64,000 nucleotides of DNA, taken from the IMG/VR virus record IMGVR_UViG_3300029641_000003. One strand, given 5' to 3'. Below are positions 13,538 through 14,638 of the stretch, in pieces. The notes beneath the pieces were generated by a model. It was not told the origin of the DNA. It worked only from the letters and a program-made list of their open reading frames with translations, and searched no databases. Each line of letters begins with the position of its first letter. Positions within the stretch are counted from its first letter, which is position 1. The stretch comes from a virus (lineage: Duplodnaviria; Heunggongvirae; Uroviricota; Caudoviricetes). Position numbers and translations under genes: made by a program.

Positions 13538-14638
13538 TTGTTATTCAGCATAAATTTGTCACAGGACTTTTATGTTAGAAAACTAAATCGAGTAGGAATA
13601 ATGAGTAAGAAGTCGATCGAGAATGAGTACAAACGGTTCCTGCAAACCGCTGAACGGTGGAAAGAGCTGGTGGTCGCAAACTCTGTTTTCCATGATACCA
13701 GTTATGTTGGCGAGGAATTTCGCCATGTTGCATTAACACATGATCCGGCTGTATTAGAAGAAGCTGAAAAATGCATAGCCGAATGGAAAGCCTTTGTTGA
13801 TCTGTGTCGCAAGGATGATGACAAAGCCTCAAACATTGTTGAGTCGGTTTATTTACCGATCCCATTCATTGTTGAGGATACTAATCAGAGTACGCATATC
13901 GTTATGCAAAGCGCAACCACAACGAGAACATTTACGCGCGAAGACCTGTTGAAAAAATACGATAAAACTATAAAGAAAAGCATGAAAAACAGGATATTTT
14001 CACAGGTTGTCGGTGCGCTTGAAGAAGAACGCAGATTCTTCGCCGCTGAACGTGAGGGCGAGGTATACCGCGCAAGAAAAGAAGGTTATACCGATGTGGT
14101 GATTACCACCAATATCGAGGGCAACAATGGACTTTCACGCTTCAGAGTGGGTACGCACGGTGCGCTGATCTTTGCCAGAAAAGCAAACACAGAGATTCCC
14201 GTTGTTAACAACGTTGGTGAGCGCCGCACCCTTACCATTTACACTGGCATTAAACCGCTTCCGTGCGGACTTCTCGGCGAATTTGACCTTTATCGGGTTC
14301 GTGATCTGGAAAAGCAGCAGCCAAGCTATGTCGTGAAGTCATATATCCTGAGAAACATTGATATCCGCAATCAGAGTTTAAAAAACAAATCAGATAAAAT
14401 GCTGGCCGAAGCCGATCCAGCCATACACCAGATCGTTAGCCGGAAAATTCAAGAGGCTAAAGATGCAATGGCAAGGCTGGATAAAATGGACCTGGAACTA
14501 CTGGAAGTTATGATTGCCTCCGGCGATGACCTGACAGGCATCCGCCTTACTGAAGCCAGGAAAAAATACGGTAAAAGCGTTGAAGAACGCTATGGGTACA
14601 CATTCACACAAACGATGTACGCGGCAAAACTCTGGTAA
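13538..14638 (+). CDS. hypothetical protein in the immC position; candidate C1-like repressor
   Basis: 366-aa ORF (alternative ATG at 13599) between lox and the pacB 3' end, where P1 carries c1/coi; operator-like motif upstream. Homology to C1 not verified. Confidence 0.5.
   Translation: MLFSINLSQDFYVRKLNRVGIMSKKSIENEYKRFLQTAERWKELVVANSVFHDTSYVGEEFRHVALTHDPAVLEEAEKCIAEWKAFVDLCRKDDDKASNIVESVYLPIPFIVEDTNQSTHIVMQSATTTRTFTREDLLKKYDKTIKKSMKNRIFSQVVGALEEERRFFAAEREGEVYRARKEGYTDVVITTNIEGNNGLSRFRVGTHGALIFARKANTEIPVVNNVGERRTLTIYTGIKPLPCGLLGEFDLYRVRDLEKQQPSYVVKSYILRNIDIRNQSLKNKSDKMLAEADPAIHQIVSRKIQEAKDAMARLDKMDLELLEVMIASGDDLTGIRLTEARKKYGKSVEERYGYTFTQTMYAAKLW

Follow-up and report, generated by a model that had tools for sequence, protein, structure and literature searches.

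A D6-type homologue of the P1 C1 repressor, with a predicted operator and a predicted Tus-like fold

The c1 locus between rox and pacB

The 64,000-nucleotide stretch of the Caudoviricetes record IMGVR_UViG_3300029641_000003 analysed here (the window) carries a plus-strand gene whose product the initial annotation had described as an unassigned protein in the immunity (c1) position, either a diverged repressor or a replacement. Comparison of the protein and its locus with known relatives indicates that it is, with high probability, the primary lysogeny repressor (immC) of a P1-like phage-plasmid of the D6 type, orthologous to D6 C1 and distantly homologous to phage P1 C1. The gene, c1, is flanked by a rox recombination site and by the 3' end of pacB, with which it is convergent, an arrangement shared with D6 and P1, and the gene order dre, rox, c1, pacB, pacA and lpa is common to the window, D6 and P1 (Table 1). 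The recombination site had initially been taken for lox; the pacB side of that description stands, and the site itself is rox, as the 32-bp sequence TAACTTTAAATAATGCCAATTATTTAAAGTTA is matched exactly. The spacing between rox and c1 measures 195 bp. The Dre-like recombinase of the window is 94% identical to D6 Dre, C1 being the more diverged of the two proteins (81%).

A query of 5 kb around c1 matched 195 plasmid records. Six of these were at least 99% identical and a seventh reached 98.2%, all being non-mobilizable plasmids of ~90-94 kb from E. coli and E. marmotae (NZ_CP085065 and NZ_CP099353 are examples of near-identical plasmids), and about 100 of the matched records were D6-like at 80-90% identity. 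These matches identify the window as a portion of a D6-type, P1-like phage-plasmid, and D6-like phage-plasmids of this kind are common in Escherichia and Salmonella.

A plus-strand open reading frame (ORF) of 366 amino acids (aa) is present at 13538..14638, as initially annotated, but its start is TTG; c1 almost certainly begins instead at ATG 13601, giving a protein of 345 aa. The profile alignment with PHROG 1678 begins at residue 22 of the 366-aa form (residues 22-366 against profile positions 2-347), and D6 has two in-frame stops (TAG TAA) within the region matching the 21-codon extension. The equivalent ATG was chosen both by the D6 depositors and by the Prokaryotic Genome Annotation Pipeline in a plasmid that is 99.5% identical across the 5-kb region. 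Moreover, AGGA is positioned 5 nt 5' of ATG 13601, and a reading frame begun at TTG would cross the putative c1 promoter and the motif copy described below. The first 21 codons of the longer form are accordingly listed as noncoding leader.

In pairwise comparison the window protein is 81% identical to D6 C1 (AAV84948.1 / ASR76322.1; AY753669, MF356679) over a gap-free BLASTP alignment of 345 aa, and tblastn to D6 c1 gave 80.6% identity at 100% coverage. The two proteins thus differ at 19% of residues, have the same length and occupy the same position between rox and pacB, with neither coi nor lxc. D6 also has the same promoter-leader sequence and a motif copy before its ATG, whereas the distal part of its rox-c1 spacer is unrelated to that of the window. 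A comparison with P1 C1 (RPC1_BPP1), which the initial annotation had proposed as a check, returned a BLASTP match of 21% identity over 241 aa (E 2e-7, residues 1-240). All three proteins match PHROG 1678 (E 3e-159 for the window protein, 3e-170 for D6 C1 and 3e-140 for P1 C1). PF27008 has precomputed matches on every P1-type relative and on 11 of 11 close relatives of the window protein, whose identity to it is 43-97%; the window protein has no match in our local copy of Pfam, which is older than PF27008. A joint alignment of both branches is collinear over ~240 residues and contains 15 invariant columns. In tblastn searches with P1 C1 at word size 2, the c1 locus was recovered in D6 and not in the window.

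By an exhaustive HMMER search of 1.84 billion proteins the C1 family is small, with 131 clusters at 50% identity. Lengths are mostly 250-290 aa, in a minority 340-380 aa, and most members are without the C-terminal module found in the window protein. In a set of 98 diverse members G187 never varies, and conservation is at least 90% at R41, P88 and R159. By these comparisons the protein is a homologue of P1 C1 that falls outside the narrow P1-type equivalog group. The features of the broad family are present, namely a PHROG 1678 / PF27008 profile match and location at immC, together with those of the D6-type subfamily, namely a length of ~345 aa, a C-terminal helical module and high identity to D6 C1. 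The diverged repressor that was initially entertained is thus borne out by 81% identity to D6 C1 and by the PHROG 1678 and PF27008 matches shared with P1 C1.

Calling the protein unassigned does not survive inspection of public records. The gene is labelled c1 in the D6 records ("similar to the C1 repressor of phage P1"), and the protein appears as "phage repressor protein" in the 99.5%-identical plasmids. The assignment of the gene is consequently ordinary; what is new are the predictions of an operator and of a Tus-like fold, and the absence of P1-type operators and partners.

A dispersed asymmetric motif as the predicted operator

Counting of k-mers in the window uncovered a dispersed, asymmetric 16-bp motif, TRTGTTAGAAAAYTAA. 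At three mismatches or fewer it has 10 matches in the window against 0.75 expected, and 0 of 100 shuffled sequences reached 10. All 11 window sites fall outside ORFs of at least 100 aa, even though such ORFs cover 80% of the window. A weight matrix built from the window sites only, applied at a threshold of at least 14 bits, found 19 sites in the independently sequenced D6 genome, where the shuffled window averaged 0.57 and never exceeded 2; in the P1 sequence examined the matrix found none. The same predicted operator consensus extends throughout both genomes. All five motif pairs are arranged head-to-head with a 2-bp gap, in the geometry TTAA-NN-TTAA, and the invariant core of the motif is TTAGAAAA. 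On the strength of these statistics and of the positions of the sites, TRTGTTAGAAAAYTAA is very probably the operator of D6-type C1, and the predicted C1 target DNA would contain TATGTTAGAAAATTAA.

P1 C1 binds 22 copies of an asymmetric 17-bp consensus, ATTGCTCTAATAAATTT, and both RepL and Lpa are under its control (PMC8546580). Annotated P1 operators lie at c1, lpa, ref, mat and ssb (NC_005856). The likeness to the window motif is considerable in layout, in that the P1 operators are likewise asymmetric, ~16-17 bp long and dispersed in ~20 copies at c1, lpa, repL and ref, among other places, with some inverted pairs (PMC8546580). The two sequences themselves do not cross over between genomes. 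At up to three mismatches ATTGCTCTAATAAATTT has 8 matches in 53.8 kb of sampled P1 sequence, 0 in the window and 0 in D6, whereas TRTGTTAGAAAAYTAA has 0 matches in the same 53.8 kb of P1. The geometry of paired sites differs as well, the annotated P1 operators Oc1a and Oc1b overlapping by 6 bp where the pairs of the window are separated by a 2-bp gap. An operator-like motif upstream of the gene had been noticed initially, and a copy is indeed present at 13571-13586; an operator of P1 type is absent from the whole window.

The c1-proximal copy lies 15 bp 5' of the ATG, downstream of the putative promoter, and therefore implies that c1 would be autoregulated. The promoter at 13528..13556 is one that we infer only from its hexamers (TTTACT-17-TAAATT, 8/12), both of which are kept in D6. 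Given this candidate promoter, the operator would cover the early transcribed region of c1. In D6 a further motif copy, the weaker of the two at 16 bits, is found 70 bp upstream of the first (112-127). The corresponding search for a second weak operator 5' of c1 in the window returned nothing above 8 bits, and TTATTCAGCATAAATTT, which overlaps the putative -10, was set aside as an operator on account of its single occurrence.

Beyond c1, the predicted sites mark lpa, repL and the immI-like operon in the window (Table 1), and in D6 additional sites lie upstream of ref and of hrdC-dmt. The broad C1 family pattern of dispersed, asymmetric predicted operators is thus found at c1, lpa, repL, immI and ref (10-11 sites in the window, 19 in D6). 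The copy at 34169..34184 has a degenerate head-to-head partner at ~34152-34167. As a late-promoter element the motif was rejected, being unrelated to the P1 -22 box AAGTGACTT.

Two groups of sites have peculiarities of their own. At 21951-21984 and 23214-23229 the first six bases of the motif, TATGTT, sit 16-17 bp downstream of TTGAAA, and the motif itself may supply the -10 element of the promoters controlled there. The copy near 12174 has the dre stop on one side and, on the other, a GC-rich hairpin with a TTT run after it, GTACCCTCGC...GCGGAGGGTAC (12100-12190, minus strand), which is likely a terminator. A promoter operator would not be expected here, and the copy may form a loop with the c1 site ~1.4 kb away.

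If the prediction is correct, the operator consensus defines the regulon of D6-type C1. From the difference between the two operators one would further expect hetero-immunity at immC between D6-type and P1-type elements, a point relevant to the coexistence of phage-plasmids and to superinfection; D6 is presumably hetero-immune. Lastly, an orthogonal repressor-operator pair beside the already exploited Dre/rox system could be a useful tool.

Table 1. Features of the c1 locus, predicted operators and related elements in the window (D6 positions are given where noted)
Feature	Position	Strand	Basis or remark
c1 gene, predicted D6-type C1 prophage repressor, 345 aa	13601..14638	+	
21-codon 5' extension of the 366-aa ORF; noncoding c1 leader with operator copy	13538..13600	+	D6 stops; PHROG start
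Putative weak sigma-70 promoter of c1	13528..13556	+	own scan
Predicted operator at c1, TATGTTAGAAAACTAA	13571..13586	+	motif statistics; identical copy at the same place in D6 (197-212)
rox recombination site, Dre target, left boundary of immC	13374..13405	.	exact match to annotated D6 rox
Tyrosine recombinase, Dre-like	12191..13219	-	
Predicted operator just after dre stop, upstream of ORF 11774..12118 (-)	12174..12189	+	kept in D6, 89946-89961
pacB homologue	14676..16184	-	
pacA homologue	16184..17548	-	
lpa (late promoter activator) homologue	17545..17937	-	PF25716, E 4e-50
Predicted head-to-head operator pair, 2-bp gap, upstream of lpa	18013..18046	.	P1 Olpa at equivalent place
Predicted head-to-head operator pair, 2-bp gap, between pmgS homologue and tRNA cluster	21951..21984	.	
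Predicted operator 21 bp upstream of pmgS-like ORF 21985..23193 (-)	23214..23229	-	D6 equivalent 10318-10333
Weaker predicted operator (3 mismatches) at pmgM-like ORF start	24269..24284	-	
Predicted operator, consensus copy directly upstream of immI-like c4 RNA - icd - antirepressor operon	34169..34184	-	D6 equivalent 21263-21278
Predicted operator upstream of repL (lytic replication) homologue 34240..35199 (-)	35370..35385	+	D6 22465-22480, upstream of annotated repL
a1/b1 targets of c4	34025-34077	-	Rfam
c4 antisense RNA	33871-33956	-	Rfam
icd-like ORF	33600-33824	-	
Rha-family (PF09669) antirepressor	32893-33600	-	Pfam

A predicted Tus-like fold and how C1 might act

An AlphaFold2 model of the window C1, built on a 20-sequence alignment of both branches, has a mean predicted local distance difference test (pLDDT) score of 84.7. 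The model has a mixed alpha/beta core (residues 1 to ~232), in which two beta-strands, 99-112 and 155-170, are very long; the remaining residues, 233-345, fold into a long helical hairpin and then three short helices. Foldseek returned four significant matches for the model in the PDB, all of them E. coli Tus-Ter (E 3e-8 to 1e-6), the next match standing at E 0.24. The model of a P1-type C1 (98% identical to P1 C1 and ~20% to the window protein; pLDDT 79.8) retrieved the same four Tus entries (E 2e-8 to 7e-8), with the next match at E 0.17. The homologous ~240-residue core, which the window protein shares with the C1 of P1 and P7 at the same locus and in the same orientation, is in these models predicted to have the same Tus-like fold. 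What we propose is a similarity of fold, which could reflect either common ancestry or convergence, and not homology. Two residues that are near-invariant family-wide, R41 and R159, map to predicted beta-strands and are candidates for DNA contact. The initial annotation had held that clear homology to an unrelated enzyme family would speak against a repressor; none appeared, and the only structural match, Tus, is a sequence-specific DNA-binding protein.

Tus (1ECR, 4XR0-2; PF05472; TIGR02648) resembles the window C1 in the comparable size of its core and in the asymmetry of its DNA site. It differs in being chromosomal and arresting forks at Ter, where the window C1 is encoded by a phage-plasmid and is a predicted repressor of phage operons; it is without detectable sequence similarity to the window C1, which has in addition a C-terminal helical module. 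Tus is a monomer that clamps its asymmetric Ter site, with inter-domain beta-strands inserted in the major groove, and C1 we take to be monomeric as well. To our knowledge no helix-turn-helix is recognisable in the C1 repressor family, and we know of the Tus architecture so far only from replication termination. A Tus-like monomer clamp on an asymmetric site offers a structural rationale for the asymmetric, non-palindromic operators of C1 and, if true, explains how repressors lacking a helix-turn-helix read them. The Tus-like fold is the first structural hypothesis for asymmetric operator recognition by P1 C1 that we found within the searchable literature. In that literature neither a link between Tus and C1 nor a mention of PF27008 was found, the key D6 and P1 genome papers and the text of the Pfam entry lying outside the search.

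The C-terminal helical module comprises ~110 residues and is conserved in the D6-type branch; the corresponding part of P1-type C1 is a tail that is short, basic and modelled with low confidence. Searched alone against Pfam, the module gave no match.

These pieces can be assembled into a mechanism. The core of C1 (residues 1 to ~232) would adopt the two-domain Tus fold, with the long beta-strands between the domains, and would bind TRTGTTAGAAAAYTAA as single sites or as head-to-head pairs with a 2-bp gap, at or beside promoters. Binding would shut off lpa, repL, the c4-icd-antirepressor operon and several other operons, and would also hold c1 itself in check through the copy before its ATG. 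The C-terminal module might, tentatively, mediate protein-protein contacts, either in pairing at double sites or in docking a Rha-type antirepressor; the D6-type branch would have this conserved module instead of Coi and Lxc. In its widest form, the proposal is that the C1-family repressors (P1, P7, D6 and ~130 clusters of relatives) are Tus-fold clamps reused as immunity repressors, with the D6 branch re-targeted to TRTGTTAGAAAAYTAA, perhaps with the C-terminal module replacing Coi/Lxc and pairing clamps at double sites of fixed spacing. We put this forward tentatively and rate it just short of evenly balanced.

A number of results tell against the account given so far. With regard to the fold, the Tus matches have low template modelling (TM) scores (0.33-0.44) and a high root-mean-square deviation, and both AlphaFold2 models came from one shared alignment, so that they are not fully independent. 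PDB sequences searched with the C1 profile by hmmsearch did not yield Tus; hhalign of C1 against Tus gave probabilities of 12.6% and 3.5%, the Tus profile in that comparison holding only relatives at least 81% identical; and PF05472 (Tus) matches 0 of 98 members of the C1 family. The window protein itself has no PF05472 match at E up to 0.1 and no TIGR02648 match. A sequence-level link to Tus was dropped after the hmmsearch, the two hhalign runs and the Pfam scan of the 98 members. What we propose for the C-terminal module is speculative. With regard to function, the window protein matches NF041318 (phage_rep_C1) over residues 9-244 (E 2.4e-5) at 24 bits against a cutoff of 500, where P1 C1 itself scores 607.5 bits, and functional equivalence to P1 C1 is thus not guaranteed. 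Promoter predictions at the motif sites are weak (8-10/12), the orientation of the motif relative to the downstream gene varies, and a consensus promoter scanner detects no c1 promoter, TTTACT-17-TAAATT falling below its threshold. We did not find TRTGTTAGAAAAYTAA in a phage context in the searchable literature, and the primary D6 papers lie outside that search, so an earlier description of the operator is possible. Repression, operator binding and fold are all predictions from sequence.

The protein could be a true C1 repressor while TRTGTTAGAAAAYTAA is bound by some other factor, such as a phage regulator or a host nucleoid protein, the real operator lying elsewhere. This we consider improbable. 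The motif is AT-rich and intergenic, as are many regulatory or nucleoid-protein sites, its operator role is predicted, and some copies precede the morphogenetic genes pmgS and pmgM, which in P1 are mainly Lpa-dependent; yet the motif bears no relation to the Lpa late-promoter box, and k-mer counting yielded no other dispersed motif of comparable strength, the other top k-mers being GC-rich coding repeats or local iterons. It also marks the positions of the P1 C1 regulon (c1, lpa, repL, immI and ref), is asymmetric and ~16-17 bp long like the P1 operator, and is absent from the sampled sequence of P1, which carries the other type of C1. Its 19 copies in D6 come close to the 22 operators of P1 (PMC8546580).

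A Tus-like protein might instead act mainly as a polar barrier to replication forks or helicases, or as a roadblock to transcription elongation, and not as a promoter-occluding repressor. In favour of this, Tus is the sole structural match and the sites are asymmetric like Ter; the c1-proximal copy, downstream of the putative promoter, is roadblock-like, and one copy lies between the dre stop and its terminator hairpin. We nevertheless think a barrier very unlikely, given that the sites cluster at the 5' ends of operons and do not form opposed groups around a terminus, that there is no sequence-level relation to Tus, and that P1 C1, its homologue, has been established by experiment as a repressor of transcription at operators that overlap promoters (NC_005856; PMC8546580). 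As for a non-homologous replacement, in which another regulator or an unrelated protein would have been captured between rox and pacB, the low identity to P1 C1 (~21%), the missing local Pfam match, the failed NCBIfam cutoff and the ~110-residue C-terminal part without a P1 C1 counterpart might all be read in its favour. The shared PHROG (E 3e-159) and PF27008, the significant BLASTP match, the 15 invariant columns and the same fold match are at odds with it; we regard it as already refuted by these homology results and accord it almost no probability.

Induction, the antirepressor module and neighbouring features

P1 has Coi, ImcA/B and Lxc, and no homologues of these were found in the window; the best tblastn match with P1 Coi, Lxc, ImcA and ImcB as queries against the window and D6 had an E of 0.047. 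D6-like elements among Salmonella plasmids are likewise without Lxc (PMC6799933). The locus had been described as being in the position of c1/coi; the c1 arrangement is confirmed, and no coi gene was found. An ORF of 61 aa at 13311-13496 was considered as a gene equivalent to coi and rejected, as it spans rox and is not kept in D6. No LexA box was detected near c1, the sole CTGT-N8-ACAG sequence of the window being that at 7086-7101 (CTGTATAAATAAACAG), a single match that equals chance expectation. Judged by its offset from D6, this LexA-box-like sequence lies near hot / humD (umuD-like) genes.

The window carries an immI-like module in which the c4 antisense RNA and its a1/b1 targets are associated with an icd-like ORF and a Rha-family antirepressor (Table 1). 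Since homologues of Coi, Lxc and Imc were not found, since the rox-c1 gap is only 195 bp and since no LexA box lies nearby, induction is likely to proceed through the c4-controlled Rha-type antirepressor; it would thus run by way of the antirepressor rather than Coi. The antirepressor of the window differs in type from P1 Ant1/Ant2. A second icd-antirepressor module is annotated in D6, outside the region that was compared.

A strong sigma-70-like promoter, TTGGCA-16-TATAAT (11/12), begins inside rox and is directed at the recombinase gene (13363-13405). On the minus strand at 19455-20639 the window has four tRNA genes, for Met, Ser-tga, Thr and Asn, of which the tRNA-Met gene is absent from D6. 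The D6 tRNA genes (7145-7850) were placed on the minus strand by ARAGORN and are labelled plus in GenBank MF356679, the latter being probably an annotation slip. Lastly, GAGGGCAAATCTTACACC occurs as three direct repeats at 56648-56720 beside a repA-like gene, at spacings of 22-32 bp; these are probably iterons of the plasmid replication origin.

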